This document shows, piece after piece, positions 14,677-39,949 of a stretch of DNA of 52,735 nt (its first letter is position 1; each line of letters begins with the position of its first letter). A program made the position numbers and the translations under genes. The notes under the pieces were generated by a model, which saw only the letters and a list, made by a program, of their open reading frames with translations, was not told the DNA's origin and made no database searches. The stretch is from a phage: sequence record PZ662386.1; one strand, 5' to 3'.

Positions 14677-14681
14677 TGAGT

Positions 14682-14707: not shown

Positions 14708-14725
14708 ACATTAGTTGAATATGTA
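14708..14725 (+). promoter_or_regulatory. degenerate copy of the conserved promoter-like motif
   Basis: ACATTAGTTGaATaTGtA matches the ACATTAGTTGGATGTGAA family in its 5' half; 24 nt upstream of the next gene. Confidence 0.25.
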
Positions 14726-14748
14726 TTAATTTCAATAGGTATATTGCA

Positions 14749-15858
14749 ATGCCGTGGCTACGCAGAGTTGAGGTAATAGTTTCACGTAAAGAAGACCCAA
14801 GCATTCGAACAATATTTAAATCACATCGTATTGATTTTGAAGTTCGTTCTACTGTTGGGTGGCCCGCCGATACAGCAAACATAACTCTGTTTAACTTGTC
14901 ATTAGAAGAAGTTAAGTTCCTCCAGGACAAGACCTACGGAGATATGTATATTGAAATTCGTGCAGGGTATGCAGAAGATGAGCGTTCGGACTCTGGTGGT
15001 GGAACCTCTAGTGGCGGTGTTAAGAAGTTTGGTCAAAAGGCCGAACAGAGCGACCGCGTAACAGTGTCTACATCACTACCAACCATCTTCTCTGGGATTA
15101 TTACAAACGCAGTTGGCTACAGAAAGCCTCCTGAACATGTAACACAATTGTTTTGTATTTCCAAGGCATATGGTGCATCCACTGATTTCAAACAGTTGAC
15201 TGCAATCAAGCCTGGAACCAAGCTCATTGATGCAATGCGCTCAATGTGTTCTGACTATGGATTCAATACCATCTCCACATTTGGTGTTGAAGATTCGGTC
15301 CTTGAAACAGTGATGCCTCGTGGGCGTGTGTTCCATGACACATTCTTAAACGAATTTCGTAACATGCTTGGCGAATACAATTTGTTGTACACTGTTACAA
15401 CTGGTGAAGTGCAAATCTTCCCAGATACCTTTGGTGATAAAGATGCTGTAAACAGAATGTCTAAAGACAGAGAGCCAGTCCAGCTGGATGAAGACTCTGT
15501 TATTGGCAACCCTGTTGCTGGAATCTGCACCTACACTTTAAATACATTCCTAAACCCATCTTTCCAACCAGGTATGATTCTTGATGTATCTCCTTTGCTC
15601 GGTAAGAAGTTGCTTGCTAACGGTGTAACTTCTGTCAATGGTGAAGGTATTGTTCTTAACACTGACCAGTCTGTATTCCGTTGGGCTGTGGAAGACAAAT
15701 ACTTCATCATGGAAGTTGTGCATAGAGGTTCAACTCACACAACCATTTATCAAACATCAATCACTGCAATCTTGGGTGGCAACACAATGATGGGTGGTAA
15801 GGAAGCTGCGTGGCAGGAAATGTATGCTAACAGTGGAATGGCAATGGAGTCATTTTAA
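14749..15858 (+). CDS. baseplate / tail protein (putative)
   Basis: 369-aa ORF directly after tape measure; Gly-rich segment; call by position. Confidence 0.45.
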   Translation: MPWLRRVEVIVSRKEDPSIRTIFKSHRIDFEVRSTVGWPADTANITLFNLSLEEVKFLQDKTYGDMYIEIRAGYAEDERSDSGGGTSSGGVKKFGQKAEQSDRVTVSTSLPTIFSGIITNAVGYRKPPEHVTQLFCISKAYGASTDFKQLTAIKPGTKLIDAMRSMCSDYGFNTISTFGVEDSVLETVMPRGRVFHDTFLNEFRNMLGEYNLLYTVTTGEVQIFPDTFGDKDAVNRMSKDREPVQLDEDSVIGNPVAGICTYTLNTFLNPSFQPGMILDVSPLLGKKLLANGVTSVNGEGIVLNTDQSVFRWAVEDKYFIMEVVHRGSTHTTIYQTSITAILGGNTMMGGKEAAWQEMYANSGMAMESF

Positions 15859-16745
15859 TGTCTATCTTTGATACCGACCTCATTGGTGGTGTGTCCTCTG
15901 GATTGAAGAATTTCAGCTACGGGCATCATCCATCTATTGTTATGTGGTCCAATGGACCTGCATCTCAGAAAGAAGAGGAGTCAGGACTGTTTGGTGGGTT
16001 TGCGAAATCTCTTGAGAGCTTGCCTATTGTTGGTGAATCTGCCGTCGAAAGTTTTAACTCCTTTAAATTCGATGCTATGGTTAGTGAAGAACACGCATCG
16101 GAAACAACTGTAACCAAGTTCCCCGTTAGTTCTGGGTTCCTGGTTAGCGACCATGTTATTAACCAGAACAGGGTACTTAAGTTAACCGCTGTTGCTGTCA
16201 ACATGCAGAACTCCTCCATGTGGACTGCATCTGTACAAGGTTTGTCTGTTGCTTCTGGTGCAATCTTCAATAGTCCGGTTATCCCAATTCTTGGTGGCAT
16301 TGCTGGTGGCGTTGCTTCTGCATTTGAAACAAGCAACCGAATCCAGTCTACCTACGATTTGTTTAACAGCTTCCGTGTTACGGGGCAGAAGTTATACATC
16401 TCCACCATTCTGGGGCCTTATTTGAATTGCGTAGTAACCTCAATCAAAACCAAACATGATAAAATGTCTTCTGCAATGTTGGCAGTTGAAATTATGTTTG
16501 AGGAATTGCAGACAGTTGATGAAGATGCTCTTGCCAGCGAAGCTCGTAAAGCAATGGAATCAATGTCTGACTACTCTGAATTTGCAAAGGTTGCTCAAAG
16601 TTTGGGGATGGGTGTTCTTGGAGGTGTTCCGCTTCCTGGACTTGGTGCTCTTGGCACCCTTCCGACCAAACAGTTATCCAACTTGAAAGGTAAGTTGAGT
16701 AAGCTGGCTTCTCCACTTTCTTCTATCAAGGGGCGTATCCTATGA
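15858..16745 (+). CDS. baseplate protein (putative)
   Basis: 295-aa ORF in baseplate block, start overlaps upstream stop. Confidence 0.4.
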   Translation: MSIFDTDLIGGVSSGLKNFSYGHHPSIVMWSNGPASQKEEESGLFGGFAKSLESLPIVGESAVESFNSFKFDAMVSEEHASETTVTKFPVSSGFLVSDHVINQNRVLKLTAVAVNMQNSSMWTASVQGLSVASGAIFNSPVIPILGGIAGGVASAFETSNRIQSTYDLFNSFRVTGQKLYISTILGPYLNCVVTSIKTKHDKMSSAMLAVEIMFEELQTVDEDALASEARKAMESMSDYSEFAKVAQSLGMGVLGGVPLPGLGALGTLPTKQLSNLKGKLSKLASPLSSIKGRIL

Positions 16746-17104
16746 TTGAGCAGGAACATCAAGCTCTAAAGCAAATTGCCGAACTTCTGCCAACCGGATA
16801 TGTGAAGAGTGTGCCTTACAGCATAAGGAAGGATGTATCGTTTGAGTTTAATGGTGTGACAGTTAAAATGTCTGCACTGTACTTAAACGAACCTCTAAAC
16901 TGCTACATGTTTGACTTGGCGTGGGGAGCTACGAATAAAATATTCGGAATCCCTATTCGATGCGGTATTGATATTCTTAAGCAATACAAGACTCCGCTTC
17001 CAAACATGTATGCAGCTAACACAGTATTCCCTGGTGAAGAAATAACAAGCTACCGACAACTCTACCTATTCATTATTGACGAGAGTGTACTCGAACGTGG
17101 CTAG
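16742..17104 (+). CDS. hypothetical tail protein
   Basis: 120-aa ORF, overlap-coupled. Confidence 0.4.
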   Translation: MIEQEHQALKQIAELLPTGYVKSVPYSIRKDVSFEFNGVTVKMSALYLNEPLNCYMFDLAWGATNKIFGIPIRCGIDILKQYKTPLPNMYAANTVFPGEEITSYRQLYLFIIDESVLERG

Positions 17105-17891
17105 TCATAACAATAACCAAAATGCCCCCGATATTAACACAAGTTATCCAGGGCACATTTACAACTTCGATGAAGCAACCCAAACTTGTGAGGTCCAGCT
17201 TGCAATCGAAAACCTGTTTGTGGGTTATGCCGAAGCCTACACCTTGCAGCCAAAACAAAGGTTGCAGGGTGTTCCTGTGCAGTTTATCCAGGGTGGCGGT
17301 TGGAGTTTAACTCATCCGGTTCCAGATGGTACTCCATGCTACGTCCATTTCTCCCAACGAGGAATAGACCATTGGCTGTCAGAGAACAAGAGCAGTGCTG
17401 GCTTAGTAAACGGGCGACCTGCCCCAGAGTTCAGCCAGCTGTTCTCCCATAATGCTGCCGTATGTACTATCGGGACTCAACCTTTGACCAAAGTTATTCC
17501 AGGATTTAATGGTGGAGTAACAGAACTGCGCAACGCAGATAGGAGCCAAAGACTAACACTGCACGGTGATGGCTTAATTGAAATCATCACTGGTGCTGCG
17601 AAGATTCAAATCACAAAAGATTCGGAGATTCTGGTTGAAGTTACGTCGCAAGCTACAGTTAAAGCGCCGCAGATTACATTGGATGGCGATACGACCGTTA
17701 CAAAATCCTTAACAGTGATGGGCGGCATGGCTGTATCTGGAACCAAAGATGGCTCCACTGCAACGTTCACTGGCGACTTTAAGATGGATGGTAACATGGT
17801 TCAAACTGGTTCCCTCACTCTTAATGGTATTAAGGTTGATGGTCACACTCACACTAACCCAGAAGGCGGCGATGTTGGGCCGATGAAATAA
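17076..17891 (+). CDS. baseplate central spike protein (gpV-like)
   Basis: C-terminal GIKVDGHTHTNPEGGD with HxH motif typical of spike tips; non-ATG start (TTG 17076, or GTG 17085/17097). Confidence 0.55.
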   Translation: MTRVYSNVASHNNNQNAPDINTSYPGHIYNFDEATQTCEVQLAIENLFVGYAEAYTLQPKQRLQGVPVQFIQGGGWSLTHPVPDGTPCYVHFSQRGIDHWLSENKSSAGLVNGRPAPEFSQLFSHNAAVCTIGTQPLTKVIPGFNGGVTELRNADRSQRLTLHGDGLIEIITGAAKIQITKDSEILVEVTSQATVKAPQITLDGDTTVTKSLTVMGGMAVSGTKDGSTATFTGDFKMDGNMVQTGSLTLNGIKVDGHTHTNPEGGDVGPMK

Positions 17892-18262
17892 TGGCTGGAA
17901 ATTTAGCTCTTGATTCAAACCACGACATTATTATCGGTCGTGGAACAACTCGTATTTCAGGTGCTGCTCAAGTCGCTCAATTGGTTAAGTGCAGGTTGCT
18001 GACAATCTTCGGAGAATGGAAGCTCGACAATTCGTTGGGCTTGCCGTGGTTCGAAGCAATCTTCACAAAGCAAGTACGTCCCTCGGATATTGAGGCAGCA
18101 ATAGCCAACATTATCCGTGGAACTGCTGGTGTCCAGCAACTTATATCCATAGATATTGATGCAGACTACCGAGCAAGAAGCCTTGGAATCTCCTTTACTG
18201 CATTGTCTGATTATGGCAACATCACGGAATTCTTAACATGGCAACAATCAAATACGGCGTAA
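17891..18262 (+). CDS. baseplate protein (gpW / gp25-like)
   Basis: 123-aa ORF immediately after the spike gene; size and position. Confidence 0.5.
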   Translation: MAGNLALDSNHDIIIGRGTTRISGAAQVAQLVKCRLLTIFGEWKLDNSLGLPWFEAIFTKQVRPSDIEAAIANIIRGTAGVQQLISIDIDADYRARSLGISFTALSDYGNITEFLTWQQSNTA

Positions 18263-19395
18263 CAGAGAACGGTTTTGTTCGCAAGCCTGTGGCCGACGTT
18301 GTATCAAGTCTTAATAACAAATTCATTGCTGCATTTGGTTCCAACTTTGATATAAGTCCGGAATCTCCTGACGGGCAATATATTGGAATTATGGCCGATG
18401 AAATCGCCTCGTGCTGGGAACAGGCTGAACAAGTATTTAACGCATTCCGTCCAGGTGCTGTATCAGGAATTGGGCTAGACAACGTTTGTGAATTAACAAA
18501 TACTGTTCGATATGTTGACAAGCCTTCTCAAGCAACAGTCTTGTGCGATGGTGATATGGGAACTACTGTTCCTGCTGGTTCTATCGTAACGGATGGCACC
18601 ATGCGCTTTATTCTCGACACAGATGTAACACTTCCAGGTGACGTAACTGTTATTGCAGAGGAGCCTGGTGAGTATTATGTCGCACCGAGAACCATCAACC
18701 AAATCGTAACTCCAGTTGCCGGATGGAATTCTGTAATTAACGAAACAGTTGGCGAGACTGGTATTAACTATGAATCAGACCCACAACTCCGAGCACGTCG
18801 AGAAAAGACTACGGCAGTCAGCAGCACAGCCACAGTCGAAGCCATCTATGCTTCACTCGCTGACCTCGATATTGATTACATTCGTGTTCGTGATAATGAT
18901 ACCGGCTCTCCTATTGGCAATCAGCCTTCGGGCACTGTATTTGTTGTAGTTGATGGCGGTACGAGCAATGATATTGCCCGTCGAATCTACAATGCCAAAA
19001 CTGGCGGAGTTCCGACATATGGCGATATCACAATTACTGTAGCAGACTCGAAAGGCTACCCACACGATATTCATTTCAGCCGACCAACTTACACCGACAT
19101 TTATGTCAAAGGTACATTCCGTCGTCGTGCAAATGCCAACATAAGTTCGAACGATGCTATTCGTCAGCTTACAGATGCAACCATTGAATATCTCAACTCC
19201 CTGCAACCAGGGCAGAGTGTGGTATGGTCCAACATGTTTGCCCCTATCATGGCTGCAACACAGTATCTTGAAATTGATTCGCTGTTTATTGGTATTGCAC
19301 CAAACCCAACTGGCATAGCAACGATAGAATTGGATATCGACAAACGTGCTCGCGGGGTTGCTGCTAACATAACTTACACTGATGTGACGGTATAA
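18238..19395 (+). CDS. baseplate J-like protein
   Basis: 385-aa ORF following gpW-like gene; size and order. Confidence 0.5.
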   Translation: MATIKYGVTENGFVRKPVADVVSSLNNKFIAAFGSNFDISPESPDGQYIGIMADEIASCWEQAEQVFNAFRPGAVSGIGLDNVCELTNTVRYVDKPSQATVLCDGDMGTTVPAGSIVTDGTMRFILDTDVTLPGDVTVIAEEPGEYYVAPRTINQIVTPVAGWNSVINETVGETGINYESDPQLRARREKTTAVSSTATVEAIYASLADLDIDYIRVRDNDTGSPIGNQPSGTVFVVVDGGTSNDIARRIYNAKTGGVPTYGDITITVADSKGYPHDIHFSRPTYTDIYVKGTFRRRANANISSNDAIRQLTDATIEYLNSLQPGQSVVWSNMFAPIMAATQYLEIDSLFIGIAPNPTGIATIELDIDKRARGVAANITYTDVTV

Positions 19396-19396
19396 T

Positions 19397-20038
19397 ATGG
19401 CTGGTAAACATGGCTTAGATATGCTGCTTTCACAGTATGCACTATCGCCAAACCTTCGTAAGTATATTTCAATCTTCTTAGAAGAGTTTGCAGAAGTTAA
19501 ACAGGCCATGACTGACTCAGTTAAGTACAGATACTTAGCAGATTCGTTCGGAGTCATGGTTGACGACCTTGCGTATATTGTGGGAGCTTCTCGTGTAATA
19601 CAAGGTGCTGCGGCACTTGGGTACTTTGGCTTCTACGCCAACCCAGGTGCATTTCCTGCTGGCGATGACAACGACCCAGGTATTGGTGGTATTCTGAAAT
19701 CAGATTACGACAAAGACTCTGGGGACTTTGTTCGAACAGACGGGCAGTTAAAGGATGCAATACGTGCCCGAATCATTAAGATAACTGGCAACTGCACCAT
19801 TGAACAGCTTATCATGTATATTGAGTTGGTCGTAGGAAGGGAACTGAAACTCCAAATCGTAGAAGGGTTTCAGACAATGGACTACATTATTCATGAAGAG
19901 TTGTCTGTGGCTGAGAAAGTTCTCATGGCCTACATGCTCCCGAACTTTAAGCCTGTTGGAGTTAAGATTACCCTAAGAGATACTAAAGGTAACATTGCTC
20001 TGGTTTATGGTTCCAAAGATTATCCTCCGGAGAAATAA
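19397..20038 (+). CDS. baseplate / tail-fibre-associated protein (putative)
   Basis: 213-aa ORF in baseplate block. Confidence 0.4.
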   Translation: MAGKHGLDMLLSQYALSPNLRKYISIFLEEFAEVKQAMTDSVKYRYLADSFGVMVDDLAYIVGASRVIQGAAALGYFGFYANPGAFPAGDDNDPGIGGILKSDYDKDSGDFVRTDGQLKDAIRARIIKITGNCTIEQLIMYIELVVGRELKLQIVEGFQTMDYIIHEELSVAEKVLMAYMLPNFKPVGVKITLRDTKGNIALVYGSKDYPPEK

Positions 20039-22568: not shown

Positions 22569-22576
22569 GATTCAAA

Positions 22577-23617: not shown

Positions 23618-23625
23618 GGAAAACA

Positions 23626-23967: not shown

Positions 23968-23984
23968 AATGATAAGGAACTCGA

Positions 23985-25639: not shown

Positions 25640-25814
25640 TTGGATATGGTGAAGGCTGACGTTTGTCAGTTAATATGCGAGAAGAGATTCGATGCGTTAT
25701 CGTCGTTTCTCTTTGAGCTAGAATAAAACAAGTAAATTAAATATTTATTATTCCCAATATTGCTACAATATTGAGAGCAATATTAGGAATGCGTAAAGTT
25801 AAAACCAAATGGTA

Positions 25815-25871
25815 CATGGTCGGTCAACTGTACCTGGATAGAAATTCGTTCATGGTCGGTCAGCTGTATCT
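25815..25871 (+). repeat. two copies of a 21-bp direct repeat
   Basis: CATGGTCGGTCAACTGTACCT and CATGGTCGGTCAGCTGTATCT 36 bp apart. Confidence 0.6.
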
Positions 25872-25962
25872 CGCCGAAATTTGTTCGAACAGTTGTCTGA
25901 CTATGAAATAATTTTTTTTTTATAATTTTTTTTTTTATTTTCAATATTGCTACAGAATTAAT

Positions 25963-26040
25963 GAGACTAGAATTCGTAACAAAGCTACGAGACTCGAATT
26001 GTTACGATATTAACGAGACTCAATCTGTGACAATATTATA
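25963..26040 (+). repeat. three tandem 26-bp iteron-like repeats (GAGACT-NGAAT core)
   Basis: GAGACT at 25963, 25989, 26015 with 26-bp period; adjacent poly-T tracts at 25911-25943. Confidence 0.55.
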
Positions 26041-26218
26041 ATCTTATTTTTGGGCCAGCGGGGAGGGGAAGCCCAACGTCCTATCGGACTTAAAATACGG
26101 TCCCTACTCCAACTTTTTCCTACAGCCTATCGGCTTTCAAACAACACCAAGTTAGGCGCTTCGCTTATGGGTCAAGGTCAAAGTCTCCGTGCTGTTGTAA
26201 CAATGGCACAGGTTTGTG

Positions 26219-26236
26219 ATATTAGTTGGACGTGAA
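26219..26236 (+). promoter_or_regulatory. conserved promoter-like motif (candidate phage-RNAP promoter)
   Basis: ATATTAGTTGGACGTGAA, member of the ACATTAGTTGGATGTGAA family; 67 nt upstream of RNAP gene. Confidence 0.4.
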
Positions 26237-26302
26237 TTGTGTAATGGCTACGCTATTATAATCCGTTTCAGTTAAATCATACACAATCTTGGAGACTTAC
26301 AA

Positions 26303-28243
26303 ATGACTACTATCACCACTCAAACTATCAAATCCGTTGTTCCTGCTATCACTGCTCTGGTATACCGTGCCAAAGAGAAACAGAACTATATGCAGCCTCA
26401 GACTTGTGCTATTGCTGCCTTAGCCATCTTCAAGATGATGACGTCTTTCACTCGTGATGACGTTGTTCCTGCCATCGCGATGGTTGAACTGGCTTCTGCT
26501 TCTATTGCTGATGCCAACCGTTATAACAACGATTTGAAAGCAATGCACTATGTTGACCCAGCTATCAACCTCATTGGTCTGGCTAAGCACTTTGGCTTCA
26601 TCACCATGAACGAAGACAAGTCATTCCAACAGACTGACACATGGGTTGAACTGGTTACAACCAAAGACACCGCAGTGCCATTCACTGAGCGTGTTACATC
26701 TGAATCTCGTCGCAAGCCTTTCGTTAAAGGTGGCAAGGTTAAGCCATCTAAGACTCTGAAAGCTGCAATCGAATTCCTGCAAGATACTGAGTACCATGTG
26801 GAGACTGAGATGGTTCGCATCATCCAGTCCATGCTTGAGCAACGTACTTATGGTGGCTTGCAGATGCCAGAAGCAATCCAGACTGAACTCCATGTTTGGA
26901 ACAATGCTGTAGCAATGATGAATCAGGACACACTGTATTCTGACTACTTTGCTGATAACCGTGGTCGCCTGTATCATGTAGCATGTGCTGGTCCTAACCC
27001 ACAATCATCTGACTTTGCTCGTTGCTTGTATTCTCACAATGTTGAGAACATCGTTAAGAAGTTTAACGAAGATGGTTCTACTACCATTGCATACAATATG
27101 TTCATGGCAGAACTGGAAGACATTTCTGGTGGTGAATGGTGCACTGCTAAGCGTTTGACTTATGTTGCTCAGAATCCTGCTGGTTCACTTGCTCGCATGA
27201 TGAACATGCCTAAAGCTGAACGTCCTTCTAAGCCATTCACTTATGTTCGTCTGGCTCTGGATTGGTTCAAGTTTGAGACTACAGGTGAATGCGATTCTCG
27301 TGTAGGCTTTGGCTTAGATGCTAAATGCTCTGGTACTCAATATCTGGCATTCATTGCTGGCAATATGGAAATGGCTCGTGCAACAGGTCTGGTTGATTCT
27401 GAGACTAAAGCATCTGACCCATACCAGTTGAGTCTTCGTGAACTGTTGAAGCTGCTGGACAAGTCTTCAATGAAGCCATCTCCTGAAATCATGGAAGAGT
27501 TCTTGAATCCGAAAGCTGGTCGTAAGTTTATCAAAACTCCGTACATGGCTATTCAATACGGTGGTGGTAAAGCTGCATTAACTGGTTCTTCTGACTTCAT
27601 TAGCTACATGACAGAAGCTCTCCAGATTCCAGTTGAGAAAGCTGAGGCATTTGCTGAACTGTGTGTGGAAGCAATCCATAACGCATTGGGTGCCAAGATT
27701 AACATGTTCATCGAGAAAGCTGCTGATGCTGCATACAACCGTTGTGTTGAACTCAACAAAGAGTACATCACATACCGTCACACTGACGGTCAGGTTGTAA
27801 TGAAGCCTTGCTTCCCATCCCGTGAAATCTGTGAGGCATTCAGCATTCGTGTTGACTCTCAAACTCGTGTTATCTTTGGTCAGATTCAGGAGAATAAGCC
27901 TTGGACCATTCGTGAATCCAATCCAACTAAAGAAGAATTCAAGCGTACTTTCGTTGTTAACTACATTCAAGGTATTGACGCACTGGTTGCTCGTACTGTT
28001 GCAGTTAAAGCTAAAGAAGCTGGCCTTCGTGGTTTCACTTCAATCCATGATTGTTTCCGTTGCTGTTTGGCAGATGCTCCACGTATGATGGAAGTTATTC
28101 GTGCAGCATATGTTGAAATCTTTGTAACCAACAATCAATTCGAGAATCTGTCTAAGCAACTCGGTGGCATTCAGATGTATCATGAGAACATCGTAACCGA
28201 AGAGCTTCTGATGAGCGAACACGCTTACTACTTCTGTCAATAA
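26303..28243 (+). CDS. single-subunit RNA polymerase (T7-like, compact)
   Basis: T7 RNAP-like motifs DNRGRLY...NPQ, DAKCSGTQY, KTPYMAIQYGGG, SIHDCF; only 646 aa. Confidence 0.8.
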   Translation: MTTITTQTIKSVVPAITALVYRAKEKQNYMQPQTCAIAALAIFKMMTSFTRDDVVPAIAMVELASASIADANRYNNDLKAMHYVDPAINLIGLAKHFGFITMNEDKSFQQTDTWVELVTTKDTAVPFTERVTSESRRKPFVKGGKVKPSKTLKAAIEFLQDTEYHVETEMVRIIQSMLEQRTYGGLQMPEAIQTELHVWNNAVAMMNQDTLYSDYFADNRGRLYHVACAGPNPQSSDFARCLYSHNVENIVKKFNEDGSTTIAYNMFMAELEDISGGEWCTAKRLTYVAQNPAGSLARMMNMPKAERPSKPFTYVRLALDWFKFETTGECDSRVGFGLDAKCSGTQYLAFIAGNMEMARATGLVDSETKASDPYQLSLRELLKLLDKSSMKPSPEIMEEFLNPKAGRKFIKTPYMAIQYGGGKAALTGSSDFISYMTEALQIPVEKAEAFAELCVEAIHNALGAKINMFIEKAADAAYNRCVELNKEYITYRHTDGQVVMKPCFPSREICEAFSIRVDSQTRVIFGQIQENKPWTIRESNPTKEEFKRTFVVNYIQGIDALVARTVAVKAKEAGLRGFTSIHDCFRCCLADAPRMMEVIRAAYVEIFVTNNQFENLSKQLGGIQMYHENIVTEELLMSEHAYYFCQ

Positions 28244-28250
28244 GAGAAAC

Positions 28251-28294
28251 AGGGCTGTCATCGAAAGGTGATGGCCCTTTCTTTATTCTTTATT
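28251..28294 (+). terminator. rho-independent terminator after RNAP gene
   Basis: Imperfect GC stem (AGGGC...GATGGCCC) followed by TTTCTTTATTCTTTATT. Confidence 0.55.
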
Positions 28295-28334
28295 AAATAA
28301 ATCCTTTAATTCCCAATATTCGGACAATATTGTT

Positions 28335-29235
28335 GCATGTAATATTGTCCCGATATTCGACATTAGTTGGATGTGAAGTAAAAGAATACGGAGAAATATT
28401 CCGCATGTCATGTTGAATCATTCTAGAAACATTCAGCATGTCAGCTTTGAGTTACAGTGTTGTAATGATGTGGCAATCATTGAACTCCCTGGGAAGGCCA
28501 CCTACAGTTCCAGCAACCATGACACAGAGTAGGAATATCTATCCGAAACTTTGACTTCATCTGTAGCATGTTCAATTGCTCCAATATTGTTCCTTCTCCT
28601 ATTATCAAGGCCCACCCACAAGCCGGGAGATAACTTTAGCAAGACTGGAACTTTTGGACATGCTTCTTTCTTTCAATCAGAATTCGAAAGAAGAGAAGAA
28701 GTCGGACTAAGCCTCTCGTTTGCACGCAGAAGCCGCCCCGATTTTGAGCAACAAATATTGTGACAATTGCGTCGCAGTATGGCATGTAAATATTGCTACA
28801 AATTGGCATGTTGGAATGTGGCAGAATTGTTAGAGGACTAATCACCTCGAAGATACAATCGTCTACCAATCTGGCATGTTAATTTTGTAACAGTATTTGT
28901 GCCAATTTCGCATGTAATAGCTGTATCAGTAGTGACCCAATATTCTTGCAACCCGCATGAATACTGGCTTCCAGCCAAGCGAAGGCTTTATCATCGCATG
29001 TAATATTGTGACAATATTGGGATAAAACCCTTTATTTAAATCATTTAGTTTATTAATTAAATGGTCGGTTTTCTGTACATAGGTATTTAGCTGTTTGTGC
29101 CAAATACAAACAAGTTGGCTGCTTCTACAGAACTCCAGTGCTATAAATGTTCGTGCCAATCTGCTGCGATTTATCTCATTTGGCGGGGTAATATTGTATT
29201 AGATTGGCATGTCATTCTTTCGATTAGTTGCATGT
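28335..29235 (+). repeat. array of about 12 degenerate GCATGT(A)A(T)ATTG-type repeats
   Basis: GCATGT at 28335, 28403, 28436, 28566, 28782, 28806, 28874, 28910, 28996, 29207, 29230 plus a GCATGA variant at 28955; interspersed CAATATTG palindromes. Confidence 0.6.
28360..28377 (+). promoter_or_regulatory. conserved promoter-like motif
   Basis: ACATTAGTTGGATGTGAA exact consensus copy. Confidence 0.4.
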
Positions 29236-29238
29236 GAA
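29221..29238 (+). promoter_or_regulatory. conserved promoter-like motif (variant)
   Basis: CGATTAGTTGCATGTGAA; about 180 nt upstream of the first early ORF. Confidence 0.35.
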
Positions 29239-29419
29239 TAAGACCAAATCTCTGTAAATTCTGTGACAGATTTTAGAGAGATTATGTCTCCAAGCTAATC
29301 ATTGTAGTTCTTCGGCACTTAATGTGTCACATACTCCCTACAACTTTAAGGTGGATTGAGGTAAGACAAGACCTCCACAATCGTTCTGTAGGGAGTTTTC
29401 TTTAACTTGGGAGAATAAA

Positions 29420-29668
29420 ATGGATACTGTGACTAAAGCTGCTTACTTTAAAGACTTGTCAGATGGTCAAATATTTTCTATTCGCTCTGTAAAGTGGATT
29501 AAAGTAAATGAATCAGACAAGTACAATGCTGTAAAGTTCTTTGATTCAAGCAAGGCATGTACTTTTAGTGACAATATTGTTGTAAATATTGAAGTCGAAT
29601 TAGAGCCAGATGATTCAAATGATGAAATCATTCTGCGTAAAACTGTTGGATACACTAAAGGATTCTGA
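29420..29668 (+). CDS. hypothetical early protein
   Basis: 82-aa ORF with RBS; first of a tightly packed, overlap-coupled early gene block. Confidence 0.5.
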   Translation: MDTVTKAAYFKDLSDGQIFSIRSVKWIKVNESDKYNAVKFFDSSKACTFSDNIVVNIEVELEPDDSNDEIILRKTVGYTKGF

Positions 29669-29669
29669 A

Positions 29670-29900
29670 ATGGATTATGCACTGTATCACTATATAAGCA
29701 GGACTGGGCTTGTTCGTCACGCTTTGGTTAACATTAAAACCAAAGACATACTGTTGGCTGGCTTGTCAATTTACGAAAACAATTTAGTATGGAAACGTGT
29801 TGTACATCCTGGACATGTTTGGGATGTAATTCAGTCTGACAAATACCACAAAATTGTTGCAATGGCTAACCGACCAGAGCACATCAAGCCGAGGAAATAA
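29670..29900 (+). CDS. hypothetical early protein
   Basis: ATG at 29670 with AAAGGA RBS; the ORF-track start 29610 overlaps the upstream gene. Confidence 0.45.
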   Translation: MDYALYHYISRTGLVRHALVNIKTKDILLAGLSIYENNLVWKRVVHPGHVWDVIQSDKYHKIVAMANRPEHIKPRK

Positions 29901-29902
29901 TC

Positions 29903-30091
29903 ATGGACTTCATCGTCTACTTTAAGTTAAATGGTGTAGAGCAAAGATTGTACTTCAATTCCTTACTTCGTTTGCAACAGTGGGCGGAGAAGTTTATTGG
30001 TTACGACTTTGAATACATCAACGCATGTACACCTGACGAACATGAGGAAATCGTGTTCAGTTCATTAAGCCAAATTCTGGAGGCCAAGTGA
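29903..30091 (+). CDS. hypothetical early protein
   Basis: 62-aa ORF with GAGGAAA RBS. Confidence 0.45.
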   Translation: MDFIVYFKLNGVEQRLYFNSLLRLQQWAEKFIGYDFEYINACTPDEHEEIVFSSLSQILEAK

Positions 30092-30957: not shown

Positions 30958-30966
30958 GGTAATTAA

Positions 30967-31275: not shown

Positions 31276-31293
31276 TCAAACTTAGGAGTTATT

Positions 31294-31729: not shown

Positions 31730-31731
31730 TC

Positions 31732-32186: not shown

Positions 32187-32249
32187 TTTCCTCAACCACT
32201 TTTGTAATGAGAGTGGTTGCTGAATATTAATCAACTTGGAGTGCATGAA

Positions 32250-33477: not shown

Positions 33478-33519
33478 ATTAACAATGGGCATCTCTTGTA
33501 GGTGTCCATGATTAATCTA

Positions 33520-33537
33520 ACATTAGTTGGATGTGAG
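33520..33537 (+). promoter_or_regulatory. conserved promoter-like motif
   Basis: ACATTAGTTGGATGTGAG; 71 nt upstream of the SSB-tail gene. Confidence 0.4.
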
Positions 33538-33608
33538 GGACAAAGCTATTCCGTGGTTAGCAATGTCACTGAAACTTAAACTGTAATTAACTTAAGAGAA
33601 TCTTAATC

Positions 33609-33965: not shown

Positions 33966-34087
33966 TTGGGGATGCCCTATGAAAATTCTATGTTTTATAG
34001 GGCTACATAATTGGGAAATTTCACATGAAAACGATTATGTAACCTTTTGGGTTTGTAGGCATTGTTCAGCAATGCGTGAGGAATATC

Positions 34088-34984
34088 ATGGCAACTAACG
34101 TTATTGAAATACCTGCCAACTTAGTCAAAACTGGCGACGTTGTAATTCATGAAGGTAAAGAGTATCTGATTGGGTATGTCTTCAGAATGGGTGTAGTTCA
34201 ACTGCAATATTCTGGTGGATGTTTCAATTTTGAGTGGGACCAGGCAGTCAAAATCTTGGATAAACGTCCTACTACAGACTCCTTTGCAAAACCGGGAGCA
34301 ACAACACGCGCAGTATTGGCAAGTCAAGTTCGACCCGGCAACACCTTATCTTATGGAATCAGGCTCTTTAAGATAAAGGAAGTTAAAGACCTGGGGGAAA
34401 GTGAGGTTCGCTTAATCCACGAAATAGGATACTTTGACTTTTTACACAACCGCGTAGTCCATATTGTTAACGAGCAACCAGCTTTGGAAACTCCAACAAT
34501 GGCATTCAACACTGAGATAAAGCCAGTGTTCCTTCCTTACGAGGGAGCAGTGAAACCATTCTCAGATGAAGAAGATGTTAAAGGTGCTGATGTTGAAGTT
34601 GGCGATGTTATCCGGTACAAGGGTAATTGGGCAACTGTTACAAACACGTACAAGCATCCAAACTCGCCATACAATAAAGTCAATATTGACTACGATGGTG
34701 TAAAAGGTTTGCAAGTGCGCCTGACACTAACTGGAACTTATTCGAGAAAGGTAAGAGCAGTAATGGAAACATTAAATATTCAAAATGCAATCGAAGCACA
34801 ACGTATTCTTCTGCAAAAGCTGGAGCAAATGCTTGATTTAACCCAGCTTCCCCCAACAGAAGATGGCAAGATGGCAATTGGCAATGCATCAATTCGTGTG
34901 GACAAGGCAACAGTTGTTAAGGCCGCACGCGATGAAATGAAAGCTGCCGCAAACAAATCAGCAGAGCTTATCAAGAAGCTGTAA
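34088..34984 (+). CDS. hypothetical protein (298 aa)
   Basis: ATG at 34088 with GAGGAA RBS; no motif recognised. Confidence 0.5.
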   Translation: MATNVIEIPANLVKTGDVVIHEGKEYLIGYVFRMGVVQLQYSGGCFNFEWDQAVKILDKRPTTDSFAKPGATTRAVLASQVRPGNTLSYGIRLFKIKEVKDLGESEVRLIHEIGYFDFLHNRVVHIVNEQPALETPTMAFNTEIKPVFLPYEGAVKPFSDEEDVKGADVEVGDVIRYKGNWATVTNTYKHPNSPYNKVNIDYDGVKGLQVRLTLTGTYSRKVRAVMETLNIQNAIEAQRILLQKLEQMLDLTQLPPTEDGKMAIGNASIRVDKATVVKAARDEMKAAANKSAELIKKL

Positions 34985-35031
34985 TTAACAGAGGTCATTC
35001 CACTTCGAGTGGCCTCGATTAATTATCAGAG

Positions 35032-35301
35032 GTGCCTATGGAAGTATGGTTTGAAAGATACATTTACAAACATGGTGTGCGAGGTAAATCAAGATACTCA
35101 GTAACATTCCTTACGGTGAGGGTGACAAAGGCTGTTCGCTCAAGCAAGGCCTACTATGTCAGAGAGAGGCTGCGTAAAGCTACCATAACAGTTGTCCCGA
35201 AATACATGAAGAATGGCAGGAAATATGAAAACTCTGGGGTTTTAGCACGCTCAGAGAACTATGCACTTAATCTGTTTAAGGAAGTATATAATGAAGTTTA
35301 A
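35032..35301 (+). CDS. hypothetical basic protein
   Basis: 89-aa Lys/Arg-rich ORF with RBS. Confidence 0.4.
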   Translation: MPMEVWFERYIYKHGVRGKSRYSVTFLTVRVTKAVRSSKAYYVRERLRKATITVVPKYMKNGRKYENSGVLARSENYALNLFKEVYNEV

Positions 35302-35644
35302 GTATATTGTAACCTACGTCATAGCACTAATTGTTTTCGGCGTCTTAACCTTTAAATCTGAAGCCAAACAGGTTAAATTTGGTTGCGACGGCTTTGATGT
35401 AACTTTGGACCAGTTTGAAAACAGACCTATTGTAGCATCAATCACATTTGAGCCAGGTACTTGGGTCGAAGTTCCGGAAAGTGGGGATTCAAACACCATT
35501 CACCTATTCAATATAGTCAATAGTAAACTTGCAGTTATGGGTATGGACCATCATGGCTCACTATTTCTGCAAATTTATCGCGATTATGACTTCTATCAGG
35601 CCCACCAGCCTCAACACAGTTTAAGATGTTTGGAGAGAAAATGA
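35291..35644 (+). CDS. hypothetical secreted/membrane protein
   Basis: N-terminal signal/TM segment (IVTYVIALIVFGVLTF); RBS AAGGAAG. Confidence 0.45.
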   Translation: MKFKYIVTYVIALIVFGVLTFKSEAKQVKFGCDGFDVTLDQFENRPIVASITFEPGTWVEVPESGDSNTIHLFNIVNSKLAVMGMDHHGSLFLQIYRDYDFYQAHQPQHSLRCLERK

Positions 35645-35874
35645 CGTCATCCGAATTTACCATTGATGGAGTACCGTACTTACTTGAATCCAGTTGCGAA
35701 TATCGTCACTGGTCAGTAATTCGCGACCGAGTAGTCAAATTCTTGGAGCGAGTAGGGAAAGATGCAGCTATTCTGACTACAGCCACAGTAGAAGGGACAA
35801 CCGAAATCAATCGGGAGCTTGTATCTTTTAAATTAACCATCAACCCAACAGGAAATCCATTCCGTGAAAGTTGA
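35641..35874 (+). CDS. hypothetical protein
   Basis: ATGA-coupled 77-aa ORF. Confidence 0.4.
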   Translation: MTSSEFTIDGVPYLLESSCEYRHWSVIRDRVVKFLERVGKDAAILTTATVEGTTEINRELVSFKLTINPTGNPFRES

Positions 35875-36133
35875 AGAACTGGCTGACCAACTTAAGGCAG
35901 CAAAACGAGAGTCTGCAAATCAATCAGAACGCGTTGCAAAACTGAAAGGGCAAGGCTCAACGTCTGAAGAAATCCAGTTATTTACAGATAATGTCTGGTT
36001 TTCAATGAATCGTGCACAATTTATCGAGATTCAGGAAGAACGTCTTACTGAACTGGAGAAGCGTGTAGAAACACTTGAGAGCTTGCTTGTAACACTGCAA
36101 GAAACTCTGGACCAGGAACTGAAAAATGTCTAA
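35864..36133 (+). CDS. hypothetical coiled-coil protein
   Basis: 89-aa ORF, GTG start. Confidence 0.4.
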   Translation: MKVEELADQLKAAKRESANQSERVAKLKGQGSTSEEIQLFTDNVWFSMNRAQFIEIQEERLTELEKRVETLESLLVTLQETLDQELKNV

Positions 36134-36542
36134 CGTTAAGCTGGGCCAACGCTCCCTTGACCGACTCAAAGGTGTAAATCCTTCATTGGTGGCAGTTTTC
36201 AAGCGTGCATGTGAAACAATGCCGTTTGATGTAACTGTTCTTGAAGGATTGCGTACTTATGAGCGTCAACAAGAGCTTTTAAAGCAAGGTGCAACCAAAG
36301 TTTCAGTTAGCCGACACATGTCAGGCAATGCTTTAGACATTGCACCATATCCGATTGACTGGAATGACCTCGAACGATTCAAAGTTTTAGCTCATCATAT
36401 ATTCAAAGCTGCAAAAGAGCTTGGAATTACCATTCGTTGGGGTGGGAACTGGAGCCGTATTGATGAAAATCAGCCGTATCCACCACTTGCACCAGGTAAG
36501 AAGAAGCTGATTGATATGCCGCACTTTGAACTTCCAGCATAA
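36126..36542 (+). CDS. peptidase M15 family peptidoglycan hydrolase (VanY / L-Ala-D-Glu peptidase-like)
   Basis: Zinc-ligand pattern SRHMSGNALD ... DMPHFE. Confidence 0.65.
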   Translation: MSNVKLGQRSLDRLKGVNPSLVAVFKRACETMPFDVTVLEGLRTYERQQELLKQGATKVSVSRHMSGNALDIAPYPIDWNDLERFKVLAHHIFKAAKELGITIRWGGNWSRIDENQPYPPLAPGKKKLIDMPHFELPA

Positions 36543-36550
36543 ATTCATCA

Positions 36551-36841
36551 ATGGAGCATCCGATGGAATATCAGGAGATACCGAAAGAGTTAGAGCGTAT
36601 GCAATCTCGCACATCTCGTGCAGAGGCAGAACTCCACCAGCATTTGTCAAACTATGTGCACGATTCCCGAAAACTTAGGTCCGAAATTGCGGTTGATGGT
36701 TGTTGCTATCTAGTAACATACGACGAGAAGACCGCCATCTTAGACGTATTAGTAAAGAGTGGAAAAGAGCGAATCGAACAGCTCAAAATCCTTAATGCGG
36801 AACTTCAAGGTATGTGGGAGAAACTCAATGCAAAACGATAA
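36551..36841 (+). CDS. hypothetical protein
   Basis: 96-aa ORF. Confidence 0.4.
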   Translation: MEHPMEYQEIPKELERMQSRTSRAEAELHQHLSNYVHDSRKLRSEIAVDGCCYLVTYDEKTAILDVLVKSGKERIEQLKILNAELQGMWEKLNAKR

Positions 36842-37388
36842 CATTACTCAAGCAGTAGAACAGCTTAAGTCCTGGCGTAGAGATGAAACCTTATTGGTTC
36901 GTTTCTACACAGACGTCTACAAAGGCGAAAGCAGTTCTGAATTTGTAGATGCGTGGATTGATGGCCTGTCTTGGCGTCACTATGATTTCGACATGCGGGA
37001 TTATTTGCATGAAGAATACGGCATTGAATATCCTGAAACTGGTACATACGACATTCTGGAATCAAGCGAAGAAGACGTTACAGAAGTTTGCTTTGCTAAC
37101 GGCCTGTTCAGCATTCGTAAGTACGATAAGTTCAATGAACTGCTCGTTGACACCGACTTGGATGTAATTCTTGCTGCATTCCGTAGTGGTGATATCGATA
37201 TTTTCACTGTAGACGATTTGAATGACAAGGTTGTTTGCCGATGTGATTCAATTGCGGATTATTTCCAGCAATATGATGGCATAGAAGTTCCAGACCATCT
37301 TCGTCCATATATTGATTGGGATGCAGTTGCAAGAGATTACGGAAGCGATTACACTTTCTCCGAAGGGATACTATTCTCAAATGCGTGA
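36828..37388 (+). CDS. hypothetical strongly acidic protein
   Basis: ATG at 36828 with GGGAGA RBS; Asp/Glu-rich throughout. Confidence 0.45.
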   Translation: MQNDNITQAVEQLKSWRRDETLLVRFYTDVYKGESSSEFVDAWIDGLSWRHYDFDMRDYLHEEYGIEYPETGTYDILESSEEDVTEVCFANGLFSIRKYDKFNELLVDTDLDVILAAFRSGDIDIFTVDDLNDKVVCRCDSIADYFQQYDGIEVPDHLRPYIDWDAVARDYGSDYTFSEGILFSNA

Positions 37389-37620
37389 TTTAAATATTGC
37401 TGAACTTGAGGCGGGATTGATTGTTCACCACCAGCCTCGAAACACTTTCTATCGTATTCTTGGGCCTACAAAGATTAAAACTCACTGCGGAAGTTGGGTG
37501 GATGGGTTTGCTTACCAAGAGGTGAAGAAGTACGGGGACCATACTTTCTTAAGTATTGATTCCTCTACTATCTACACACGACCGAAAGAGCTATTCGACT
37601 CAGACTGGAAAACACTATAG
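37381..37620 (+). CDS. hypothetical protein
   Basis: 79-aa ORF from ATG 37381 overlapping upstream stop. Confidence 0.35.
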   Translation: MRDLNIAELEAGLIVHHQPRNTFYRILGPTKIKTHCGSWVDGFAYQEVKKYGDHTFLSIDSSTIYTRPKELFDSDWKTL

Positions 37621-37689
37621 TTCCAGGCGGGTTTCTTCGAAGTGCCAAGCGGGTTTTGTACTCGCATTGGCCTTCGGCTTTAGTCTGAA

Positions 37690-37707
37690 ACATTAGTGGG
37701 ATTTGAT
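37690..37707 (+). promoter_or_regulatory. conserved promoter-like motif (variant)
   Basis: ACATTAGTGGGATTTGAT preceded by TCTGAAAC, as in other copies. Confidence 0.35.
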
Positions 37708-37830
37708 TCTGACCACTTAGGGAAGAAAGGCATTATACACTTGTCGCCAAACGGGTGTCAAGCACTTTCTTCATTTATTTTAATTTATTCTTATTATTCT
37801 TTTTGTTTGGAATATTGGAATAATTCTGAA

Positions 37831-37848
37831 ACATTAATTGGAATTGAA
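37831..37848 (+). promoter_or_regulatory. conserved promoter-like motif (variant)
   Basis: ACATTAATTGGAATTGAA preceded by TTCTGAAAC. Confidence 0.35.
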
Positions 37849-38002
37849 TTAGTGTAATTCTGTCTGTACTCTTTTCCACTAGCAATTGTAGAGGGAGTCC
37901 ACTGCAATAAGCGCAGCCTCAAACAACCAAGTCTGGACAACTTGGGAAGAGAGTACAGCACAAAATTACATTAGTTTGAATTGAAACAACATCAGATAAG
38001 AG

Positions 38003-38067
38003 CTTTGTAACTAGGTAGTCCGTCTGGTACCAAGACGTGTGAGAACGTTCGATTCGTTCTACAAAGC
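38003..38067 (+). ncRNA. tRNA-like element lacking a canonical D-arm
   Basis: Perfect 7-bp acceptor-like stem CTTTGTA/TACAAAG, 5-bp hairpin with 7-nt loop (CGTCT GGTACCA AGACG), and T-arm GAACG TTCGATT CGTTC. Confidence 0.3.
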
Positions 38068-38618
38068 TCTTTTCGATGGAATGTTTCCATCATATACATT
38101 TAACTTTTAACATAGGCCAAAGGGCCGGAATACTTATCCACAGAAAGCTATTCACTTGTTATAGGCGATGTATTGGGATGAATTGGAACTAAATAAGCAA
38201 GCTGTTAGGGCTGAATAATTAGAGGGTTATGCCTCATGCTTATGTTAGTCATTCGAAAATAGGTTTGTGCCACAAGCTGCTGGTGCTCTGAGGAAGTCGG
38301 ACAAACAGGGCTTAGAGTGGCATAATCCGCACAAAACCGCGCCACCAGCTATGCCAAAGCAGGTGGATTGGGTGAATGTATTGGGAAGGGTTGCAAAGCC
38401 TCTGTGACACGCCTGAGCCGCAAGGCGACGACACTCATGTGATTAGCGTATCGCACCCTAACGGGAGTAACCCTTCGCCAATGCAGTTATCCAGAATTGA
38501 CACAAACGGTAGGCAGTGGCCCGATTTTCGGCCTTCCTGCGCTACCCTGTGGCCTGTTCCTGGGCCAAAAGATGAGAAGAGAAGTCACAAACACTGAATC
38601 GAAAATTGGAGAGTTCCT

Positions 38619-38939
38619 ATGATTCGCAAGCATTCTGCTAAAGTTTTGACGTTGAGAAATGTACTAATGTTCCCTTCAAGTGGGGAAGGAGAGGAAGAAA
38701 CAATCCACTTCGTTCTCGTTGGTGGGCGTTGGTACTATAACGGCACCAATTCTTTCCACGTAAGTCTGTCGGAGAAAGATGGATTCTGGAAGCACACCTT
38801 TAAGGAGTTGCTTGAAAGCAGTGCCAACTACACCCTTGCCGAAGTTAAGAAATATTTCTACTGCGGCCCAAACAAGTCCATGCAAATCGCAACTCGCAAT
38901 TGGACAACAAACCAACCGATTTACGGAGTTCCATTTTGA
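38619..38939 (+). CDS. hypothetical protein
   Basis: 106-aa ORF with GGAGAG RBS. Confidence 0.45.
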   Translation: MIRKHSAKVLTLRNVLMFPSSGEGEEETIHFVLVGGRWYYNGTNSFHVSLSEKDGFWKHTFKELLESSANYTLAEVKKYFYCGPNKSMQIATRNWTTNQPIYGVPF

Positions 38940-39226
38940 ACTTACAAGACAAATCTAAAGAAGAGTTGATTGAGATTATTCAGAAAGAGCACGAACTCGC
39001 TGGCATCACAATTAACTTTGAACTCCAGGCAATGCAAGCTGTTGCTTTGGGTCACGGTCTAATGGCTACACTCATTCATGCCAAGAATGTGTTGGGCGTT
39101 AACGACGAAAAATACCAAATTCTGGAGAAAGCTGCGCAAGGGCGGATTTCGCAGTGCTTGGTGACATTAGTTGATTTGGGAATCGACGCAGAAACTGCGA
39201 ACAAACGTATCCTACAAGGCCACTAA
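38900..39226 (+). CDS. hypothetical protein
   Basis: 108-aa ORF; start uncertain (ATG 38900 or TTG 38933 with GGAG RBS). Confidence 0.4.
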   Translation: MDNKPTDLRSSILNLQDKSKEELIEIIQKEHELAGITINFELQAMQAVALGHGLMATLIHAKNVLGVNDEKYQILEKAAQGRISQCLVTLVDLGIDAETANKRILQGH

Positions 39227-39227
39227 A

Positions 39228-39902
39228 ATGTCTTATCATGATGATGACAAAGAGATTGCACTATCAACGTGTAAGCAATGGCTCAATGATAATGATGCCG
39301 TCTATCTTGCCAAGGAAGATGTTATCATTATGTGGGTCCATTTTAATCCAGAATCGAAGCGCGGTGAGTGGCAACGCTACAAGATGAAAGAGGCTTGCCG
39401 CATAATTAAAGCCACACGCGCTGGCTTCTCTGCTATGAAGTACATCAAGCCAGAGATGCTAATGCTTGCTGCACAGGAAGAAGAACGTGCATATAAGCAA
39501 GCTGTTAAATCTCGTTCAACTGTTCCTCCAGAGTTCTTTAATTTGGAGCGCGCTGGACACTTCAACAATTTAGAAATGTTGACACTGTGCCTGTTGCAAG
39601 AATTAGTTGGAAGAGGACAAAACATTGAAGCTGTTTGTCTTGGAGAACTCATGAAAGAGTTGTTCTCGGCAAAGGGCTTTGCTGTGCCAAACCGAACTTT
39701 ACGCTGGAAATTGTTGCGAGCAGTCGCGCAAGAAGCTGGTGTAGTTGTTCGTGACAGAACAAACCGACTCACTGTAACTGGAGTTGGGCGTTTTGTAGCA
39801 ATCCAGATTGAGGGTTATGACGAATCAATCATCACTGAACTCACTGTCGCTGAGACAAAGGATTTAGTAAATAAAACACTAGAACGATTCAATAGATATT
39901 GA
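39228..39902 (+). CDS. hypothetical protein (224 aa)
   Basis: ATG at 39228 just after upstream stop; no motif recognised. Confidence 0.45.
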   Translation: MSYHDDDKEIALSTCKQWLNDNDAVYLAKEDVIIMWVHFNPESKRGEWQRYKMKEACRIIKATRAGFSAMKYIKPEMLMLAAQEEERAYKQAVKSRSTVPPEFFNLERAGHFNNLEMLTLCLLQELVGRGQNIEAVCLGELMKELFSAKGFAVPNRTLRWKLLRAVAQEAGVVVRDRTNRLTVTGVGRFVAIQIEGYDESIITELTVAETKDLVNKTLERFNRY

Positions 39903-39931
39903 GTCGTTTGACGAATCAGAGCAGTTCTGAA

Positions 39932-39949
39932 ACATTAGTTGGATGTGGA
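39932..39949 (+). promoter_or_regulatory. conserved promoter-like motif
   Basis: ACATTAGTTGGATGTGGA preceded by TTCTGAAAC; 77 nt upstream of the acidic-protein gene. Confidence 0.4.

Follow-up and report, generated by a model that had tools for sequence, protein, structure and literature searches.

The 52,735-nucleotide phage sequence PZ662386.1, analysed here over its full length (the window), carries nine strong copies of an 18-bp motif together with a gene for a single-subunit RNA polymerase. Judging from the sequence, we consider it about 80% probable that the motif is the promoter of this compact, phage-encoded enzyme of the T7 fold. The window represents a phiEcoM-GJ1-like myovirus (Chaseviridae, Cleopatravirinae, Carltongylesvirus), its positions 26000-30000 being 96.8% identical to Escherichia phage vB_EcoM_DE15 (DE15) and 89.8% identical to phiEcoM-GJ1 (GJ1) over the 4 kb compared. 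Since the GenBank record of GJ1 (EF460875 / NC_010106, 2008) already holds nine features named 'putative phage promoter 1-9', which are the same motif at syntenic sites, finding the motif is a rediscovery of that 2008 prediction and is not new.

Statistics and gene context of the motif copies

Searching the whole window with the consensus ACATTAGTTGGATGTGAA at up to three mismatches returned nine matches, all on the + strand, where 0.12 are expected from shuffled sequence, and none of 100 shuffles yielded nine matches to the 18-mer. The same family ranked top in an unbiased repeat search of the window. Using a position-weight matrix built from the nine sites, the copies score between 21.9 and 29.5 bits and the next tier of sites reaches at most 14.4 bits, which is the range of shuffled sequence. 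The information content is 0.5-1.6 bits per position over the 18 positions (nominally it can reach about 2 bits, the pseudocount with nine sites capping it near 1.6) and is lower on both sides. The copies, followed by two weak sites, are listed with their GJ1 counterparts:

14708..14725, + strand: late-region variant copy ACATTAGTTGAATATGTA; 21.9 bits; 23 nt before the ATG at 14749; GJ1 promoter 9
26219..26236, + strand: copy ATATTAGTTGGACGTGAA; 24.6 bits; 66 nt before the start codon of the RNA polymerase gene
28360..28377, + strand: perfect consensus copy ACATTAGTTGGATGTGAA; 29.5 bits; first copy after the polymerase gene and its terminator; GJ1 promoter 1
29221..29238, + strand: copy CGATTAGTTGCATGTGAA; 22.0 bits; 181 nt before the first small early gene (29420); GJ1 promoter 2
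33520..33537, + strand: copy ACATTAGTTGGATGTGAG; 27.2 bits; 71 nt before ssb (33609); GJ1 promoter 3
37690..37707, + strand: copy ACATTAGTGGGATTTGAT, first of a tandem trio; 23.6 bits; GJ1 promoter 4
37831..37848, + strand: copy ACATTAATTGGAATTGAA, second of the trio; 24.0 bits
37968..37985, + strand: copy ACATTAGTTTGAATTGAA, third of the trio; 24.1 bits; downstream flank fits GJ1 promoter 5
39932..39949, + strand: copy ACATTAGTTGGATGTGGA; 27.2 bits; 76 nt before the gene at 40026; GJ1 promoter 7
39600..39617, + strand: weak site GAATTAGTTGGAAGAGGA within a coding sequence; 10.6 bits, not significant alone; GJ1 promoter 6
47779..47796, + strand: weak site GCATTATTTGGAAGTGGT; 13.2 bits, within the range of shuffled sequence; proposed counterpart of GJ1 promoter 8, by position only

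The original prediction had listed eight of the nine strong copies. All of its coordinates proved correct in the three-mismatch search and all eight copies are real, the one at 37968 having been overlooked; the search of the whole genome and of relatives that it had proposed was run here and gave the nine copies of the window and syntenic copies in five genera. It had also described the copies as intergenic, on the + strand and co-oriented with the genes, and this applies to nine out of nine; with a + strand gene model that is 86% coding, random placement would produce it with a probability of about 0.14^9 = 2e-8. The prefix TTCTGAA attributed to the motif is found at 37831 and 39932, and as GTCTGAA at 37690, but not at the other copies. 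A distance of mostly 65-180 nt to a start codon is a good description of the copies at 26219, 33520, 39932 and 29221 (66, 71, 76 and 181 nt). It does not suit the variant at 14708, only 23 nt from its start codon in the gap between a 1242-aa tail gene and a baseplate gene, nor the copy at 28360 and the tandem trio (spacing about 140 nt), which lead into stretches poor in open reading frames (ORFs): the first ORF of at least 60 aa begins 173 nt after copy 28360 and about 390 nt after copy 37968.

The 20-mers annotated as GJ1 promoters 1-5, 7 and 9 match copies of the window directly, the first of them (CGACATTAGTTGGATGTGAA) being the counterpart of copy 28360. The match of promoter 6 is weaker, and that of promoter 8 is weaker and by position only, the site at 47779 lying, like promoter 8, at the end of the gene that follows the one for the DNA polymerase. 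The weak site at 39600 is possibly an internal promoter; its ATTAGTTGGA core, which spans three synonymous codon positions, is the longest invariant run among six genomes from five genera, and the neighbouring codons drift. Compared with GJ1, the window has one extra copy (37831) in its 37.7-38.0 kb cluster. The copy upstream of the polymerase gene is present in GJ1 (571, 25.4 bits) but carries no annotation there, and the annotation in the GJ1 record is a prediction only. According to a 2021 review (PMC8472413), the promoters that the chasevirus polymerase uses throughout the genome are similar in sequence, and the 2022 ICTV profile describes chasevirus promoters as "not yet identified". For a phage of the GJ1 type, the motif is thus an ordinary result, a promoter motif having already been predicted for the group.

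The phage-encoded RNA polymerase

The presumed reader of the motif is encoded between the copies at 26219 and 28360:

26303..28243, + strand: gene for a 646-aa single-subunit RNA polymerase (Pfam RNA_pol, catalytic motifs, AlphaFold/Foldseek)

The claims that a T7-like RNA polymerase is encoded here and that a motif copy precedes its gene both held, the gene and copy 26219 being confirmed. The protein matches Pfam RNA_pol with an E value of 1.5e-18, the match being limited to residues 322-621, and a single-sequence search detected no match among PDB sequences. The T7-type catalytic motifs are invariant in an alignment of 50 homologues: motif A with D339 in DAKCSGTQ, motif B with R407/K411/Y419 and motif C with H582-D583. 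The AlphaFold model (pLDDT 91.7) has T7 RNA polymerase as its best Foldseek matches (E 8e-19, 14-16% identity), followed by the mitochondrial RNA polymerases.

The enzyme is about 240 aa (about 27%) shorter than T7 RNA polymerase. A profile search aligned residues ~152-388 with T7 residues 316-592 and residues 555-612 with T7 residues 793-850, and gave no significant alignment to T7 residues 1-315; the N-terminus thus comprises about 150 residues, compared with the 315-residue promoter-binding domain of T7. From the model and the profile alignment, a beta-hairpin (about residues 505-537) is located at the position of the T7 specificity loop; no counterpart of the AT-rich recognition loop or of the intercalating hairpin of T7 was recognised. 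In the 19 homologues of the alignment that are closest (55-83% identical, including the Y2, SSEM1 and Myduc enzymes), the core of the beta-hairpin, FSIRVDSQTRVIFGQ, is 81% conserved, the value for the entire protein being 68%. This segment is clade-specific, with FSIFLGSGEQMYFGK and FSIRYTQNTIISFGS in distant clades.

The start codon of the polymerase is annotated variously, giving 617 aa in DE15, 648 aa in GJ1 and 704 aa in Mangalitsa and in the cluster representative P0001. Polymerase homologues with 35-53% identity (P0074, P0079, P0107, P0116) are located on bacterial contigs of 0.14-6.3 Mb, which are chromosome-sized in Hafnia alvei and Pseudomonas brenneri and measure 137-240 kb in Lelliottia wanjuensis and Pseudomonas laurylsulfatiphila. 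In one metagenomic relative, a gene for a phage integrase stands beside the lysis and polymerase genes (loci L016:151-1035; L017:666-1616). Some relatives of these 'strictly lytic' phages may be integrated elements.

Conservation and drift of the motif among relatives

Phages 4HA13, Y2, PP101 and Myduc, which represent four further genera of the Cleopatravirinae and whose polymerases are 66-77% identical to that of the window, contain the 18-mer (up to three mismatches) 5-6 times in their first 22 kb, all on the + strand, where about 0.05 are expected. Several of these copies are syntenic, following the polymerase gene or preceding ssb or the counterpart of the gene at 40026. Footprint alignments of two syntenic copies with 60-nt flanks display a conserved motif block within diverged flanks. 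The late copy is kept in PP101 and 4HA13 as a subtype with a central GAA, which ends in GTGTA in these phages and in ATGTA in the window.

The motif is unchanged at 66-99% polymerase identity. In a relative with a 52% identical polymerase, at least six copies of GCATTAGTAGGNTTTGAA are present on both sides of the polymerase gene, and about six copies of CATTANTTGRNNATGGAGAA are found where the polymerase is 43% identical. The 18-mer was not found in the Nefertitivirinae (polymerase ~34% identical), which carry other repeats beginning directly after the polymerase gene, namely GCTCTTCGAGCCACAAG in Aeromonas and Shewanella phages and the T3-like CTCGCCCACTAG in a Vibrio phage. In a clade with a 40% identical polymerase (L015), no repeated motif stood out clearly; ahead of its polymerase gene there were only CTATACAGG-like words. 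These distant relatives were examined by pattern and repeat searches. Such stepwise drift is what would be expected of polymerase-specific promoters. An exact 16-mer scan of IMG/VR was uninformative, with 28 matches of which about half fall on chasevirus-sized contigs and the rest are, by a rough estimate, near chance level.

A register equating CATTAG of the motif with CACTAG of the Nefertitivirinae, or with CACTA(T/A)AG of T7 and T3 (start at the G), was considered and not adopted, because conservation runs downstream of CATTAG here and upstream of the corresponding word there. The repeats of the Aeromonas and Shewanella chaseviruses (L009:21819-23210, L010:9113-9190) consist of small GGCTC-TTC-GAGCC hairpins arranged in tandem about 30 nt apart, followed by CACAAG and, some three bases on, by (C/G)CTAGC; promoters, hairpin-type promoters and terminators are all candidates for their function.

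The copy before the polymerase gene and the start point

All genera examined have a copy ahead of the polymerase gene (GJ1 571, DE15 568, Mangalitsa 131, 4HA13 122, PP101 355, Myduc 173; in degenerate form in Y2), and the metagenomic relatives L017 and L016 have one too. Given this recurrence, it is reasonable to propose that the polymerase reinforces its own expression through copy 26219. At three sites (14708 in the window, PP101 355 and Myduc 173) the leader between motif and ATG measures 23-25 nt and has room only for a ribosome-binding site. Therefore the start point, if the motif is a promoter, should be located within the motif or at most about 12 nt after it, and we would place it at the invariant TG (positions 15-16) or at the purines next to it on the downstream side.

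Downstream of copy 26219, a block running from GGCTACGC to TAATCCGTTTCA (26243-26275) is conserved in Mangalitsa, 4HA13, Y2, PP101 and Myduc despite differing surroundings. Possibly it serves as a leader element in the mRNA of the polymerase.

Terminators, hairpins and sigma70-like sites

The structures predicted next to the motif copies are the following:

28251..28288, + strand: intrinsic terminator, 12-bp stem followed by TTTCTTTATTC, directly after the polymerase gene
14677..14702, + strand: stable hairpin before copy 14708; -18.2 kcal/mol, z -4.6; stem altered by compensatory changes in PP101 and 4HA13
28315..28357, + strand: stable hairpin before copy 28360; -14.5 kcal/mol, z -4.4
33478..33516, + strand: stable hairpin before copy 33520; -14.8 kcal/mol, z -4.4; compensatory changes across genera
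39882..39909, + strand: stable hairpin before copy 39932; -16.7 kcal/mol, z -3.6

The perfect copy at 28360 begins about 80 nt beyond the terminator of the polymerase gene, and in PYps23T and Mangalitsa, too, a comparable hairpin with a T-run behind it separates the polymerase gene from the motif copy that comes next. Significantly stable hairpins (z at or below -3.6) occur within 50 nt upstream of four of the nine copies and moderately stable ones at two more. The hairpin at 14677..14702 looks like a terminator or a structure protecting a 3' end. This layout fits a unit in which a terminator or 3'-end hairpin is followed by a promoter.

Three sigma70-like sites, at 25771, 25897 and 26010, precede the polymerase gene. 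No sigma70-like site overlaps a motif copy; between 25 and 44 kb there are 29 such sites compared with 37.7 expected, that is, no enrichment. No conserved -10-like element was found at a fixed distance downstream of the motif, the information beyond position 18 being about 0.1-0.5 bits. A reading of the motif as a sigma70 promoter was rejected on these two grounds. The motif is asymmetric, confined to one strand and intergenic, and the view that it resembles promoters of single-subunit RNA polymerases rather than sigma70 promoters was supported.

The three sigma70-like sites lie in an AT-rich stretch (25740-26050) just outside the inferred terminal repeat described below, and they are probably host promoters of the polymerase gene. 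The stretch also contains repeated words: TTCCCAATATTGCTACAATATT twice (and once more at 28303), CATGGTCGGTCA(A/G)CTGTA twice and GAGACTnGAATT several times. Proteus phage Myduc has a near-consensus sigma70 promoter (TTGACA, 17 nt, TAGTAT) within its terminal repeat, upstream of the polymerase gene (L007:60-105), the counterpart of which in the window is only a TATAAT with a poor -35 element (26257).

Terminal repeat and genome ends

Going by homology to the termini of Mangalitsa, 4HA13 and Myduc as well as to the Y2 record, the window appears to be a circularly permuted representation with its physical ends in mid-window:

26090..28707, no strand: inferred direct terminal repeat of about 2.6 kb

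This repeat holds the copies at 26219 and 28360 and the whole polymerase gene, copy 26219 lying about 130 bp inside the inferred left end, and both of its inferred boundaries come after a TCGGAC word. The polymerase gene is inside a long direct terminal repeat in Mangalitsa (1-3234), 4HA13 (1-3120) and Myduc (1-3202), all annotated with PhageTerm, and in the Y2 record, which contains both repeats (1-2608). The left end falls within CGGACTTAA(A/T)A(A)TACGGTCCC in Mangalitsa and 4HA13 (after CGGAC) and in Y2 (three bases earlier), and in Mangalitsa and 4HA13 it is about 120-130 bp upstream of a motif copy. The sigma70-like cluster at 25.77-26.04 kb is just outside the repeat, so that in linear virion DNA the right-hand polymerase gene would be the only one of the two downstream of it.

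For Yersinia phage PYps23T a terminal repeat of 2,339 bp has been reported experimentally (PMC8762354). It begins with CGTGAATTG and ends with ACATTAGTTGGA (L011:1-20, 2328-2345; L012:1018-1037, 3356-3370), so that its ends are at one and the same position inside two motif copies, ATTAGTTGGA|YGTGAA, equivalent to 26219 and 28360 in the window. This lead, that the repeat boundaries are in the motif, is contradicted by four other phages: ends of virion DNA coincide with the motif only in PYps23T, not in Mangalitsa, 4HA13, Myduc or Y2. PYps23T also carries, at the same position, the left-end sequence common to Mangalitsa, 4HA13 and Y2, and its two motif copies have a 10-nt identity in common. It seems more likely that the junction was placed within this identity than that the phages really differ.

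Proposed transcription scheme and likeness to known systems

In the scheme we propose, host RNA polymerase would transcribe the polymerase gene (26303-28243), probably from the sigma70-like sites at about 25.77-26.04 kb, and stop at the terminator at 28251-28288. The new phage polymerase would then initiate at 28360, 29221, 33520, the 37690/37831/37968 trio, 39932 and the variant 14708, at or just after the invariant T-G of motif positions 15-16. Since all genes are co-directional, these starts could drive the early and middle genes and, through read-through, the late genes. The hairpins upstream of several copies would end or stabilise the preceding transcripts, giving hairpin-then-promoter units, and copy 26219 would let the phage polymerase transcribe its own gene in a positive feedback.

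Such an arrangement is similar to that of T7, T3 and SP6. Like the promoters of the Autographiviridae, the motif is asymmetric, highly conserved, intergenic, co-oriented with the genes and of comparable length (~18-23 bp). Further points in common are its proposed first use after an early terminator behind the polymerase region, tandem promoters, variation of the motif with the polymerase lineage and the beta-hairpin at the specificity-loop position of the enzyme. The copy that precedes the polymerase gene, close to the left genome end, recalls T7 phiOL, which lies upstream of the early region. In contrast, the motif has no sequence similarity to the consensus of T7 (TAATACGACTCACTATAG), T3 or SP6, and the phage differs from the T7 class in being a myovirus with very few copies in its late region. 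N4 RNA polymerase II and the mitochondrial RNA polymerases are likewise divergent enzymes of the T7 fold, and they need helper factors; the N4 middle and yeast mitochondrial promoter elements are short and AT-rich, whereas the motif of the window is much longer and more conserved.

Alternative explanations

The statistics of the motif, its setting among the genes, the fold of the polymerase and the conservation with co-divergence are established, and from them we infer that the polymerase binds the motif, where it starts and when the genes are expressed. Each of the indirect tests agrees with this interpretation. Several considerations weigh against this interpretation. No 5'-end or start-site mapping and no in vitro transcription were found in the literature searched up to 2026, and the start site is deduced rather than observed. 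With a single strong copy in the structural module of about 25 kb, the late genes would have to be transcribed by long read-through or from weaker, unrecognised sites. Given the short N-terminus predicted for the enzyme, unaided promoter recognition and DNA melting are not assured, and N4 RNA polymerase II, a small enzyme of the same fold, requires a helper protein. Moreover, drift with the polymerase is inseparable from divergence of the whole lineage, and another phage protein could read the motif. Such a reader, either an activator redirecting host RNA polymerase, as at the MotA box of T4 middle promoters, or a helper of the phage polymerase, would explain the drift equally well, would suit an enzyme lacking about half of the T7 promoter-binding domain and could be sought among the many small early proteins of no known function. 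We nonetheless regard it as unlikely: a conserved -10-like element at a fixed spacing downstream is absent and no sigma70-like site overlaps a copy, a T7-fold polymerase must have promoters and the genome offers no other candidate repeat family, and the segment at the specificity-loop position is unusually conserved in the 19 closest homologues.

Two further explanations appear very improbable to us. That the motif, or at least the copies at 26219 and 28360, marks the genome ends or has a part in packaging or replication, with the repeat cut at ATTAGTTGGA^YGTGAA, is suggested by the PYps23T repeat starting and ending inside two motif copies (PMC8762354). Against this, the ends lie elsewhere in the three PhageTerm-annotated phages and in the Y2 record, the 10-nt identity means that a ligation-PCR junction cannot place the break and template switching could produce it, and seven other strong copies are far from the termini. 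T7 provides a parallel for a terminus role, as polymerase promoters near both of its genome ends take part in replication and concatemer processing. Equally improbable is an action in RNA, in which the motif would not be a DNA promoter but would act together with the upstream hairpins, for instance as a signal for processing or stability. The strand specificity of the motif, the stable hairpins before four to six of the nine sites and the compensatory substitutions in some of them, which imply function in RNA, are in agreement with this idea, but the hairpins are easily accounted for if they terminate the transcription unit that comes before. In addition, copy 28360 is downstream of a strong intrinsic terminator and copy 26219, about 130 bp from the inferred left end, would have scarcely any transcript upstream of it, if any; RNase sites, moreover, are not typically unstructured, sequence-specific motifs of 18 nt that drift with a polymerase lineage.

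As a promoter of the phage polymerase, the motif would be a concrete and directly testable candidate for the chaseviruses, defined by positional conservation in five genera, by stepwise drift along with the polymerase and by its replacement in the Nefertitivirinae, the second subfamily. A bolder extension, which we find possible but rather doubtful, is that the 646-aa enzyme recognises the 18-bp promoter unaided, in a mode unlike that of T7, and that the series ACATTAGTTGGATGTGAA, GCATTAGTAGGNTTTGAA, CATTANTTGRNNATGGAGAA and CTCGCCCACTAG represents mutually orthogonal, compact polymerase-promoter pairs; should the enzyme indeed work alone on this promoter, it might, like its relatives, be put to use as a compact orthogonal tool for transcription. 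A less likely extension is that the two copies in the terminal repeat also help to form the genome ends, as PYps23T hints. The presence of two copies and the polymerase gene in the terminal repeat raises the question of early expression and self-amplification in a myovirus with this gene at both ends.

ORF-poor regions

Rfam and tRNA scans of the window gave no matches, and accordingly the motif and the ORF-poor stretches match no known RNA family. Two stretches of about 1 kb (40365-41331 and 41781-42967) are without convincing ORFs; GJ1 and ST32 have a tRNA-Arg in the corresponding region, but in the window ARAGORN found no tRNA at all and Rfam nothing. The ORF-poor stretch between copies 28360 and 29221 (28335-29235) contains 11 of the 23 + strand GCATGT words of the window (P ~6e-14), often as GGCATGT(A/C)A and intermixed with AATATTG words. 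This array spans the inferred right boundary of the terminal repeat, and in the relative with the 43% identical polymerase (L016:4770-6100) the polymerase gene is likewise followed by similar repeats, TGCATGTCA and GGCATGT. It could be iteron-like, that is, a replication origin or a protein-binding array, transcribed from copy 28360.

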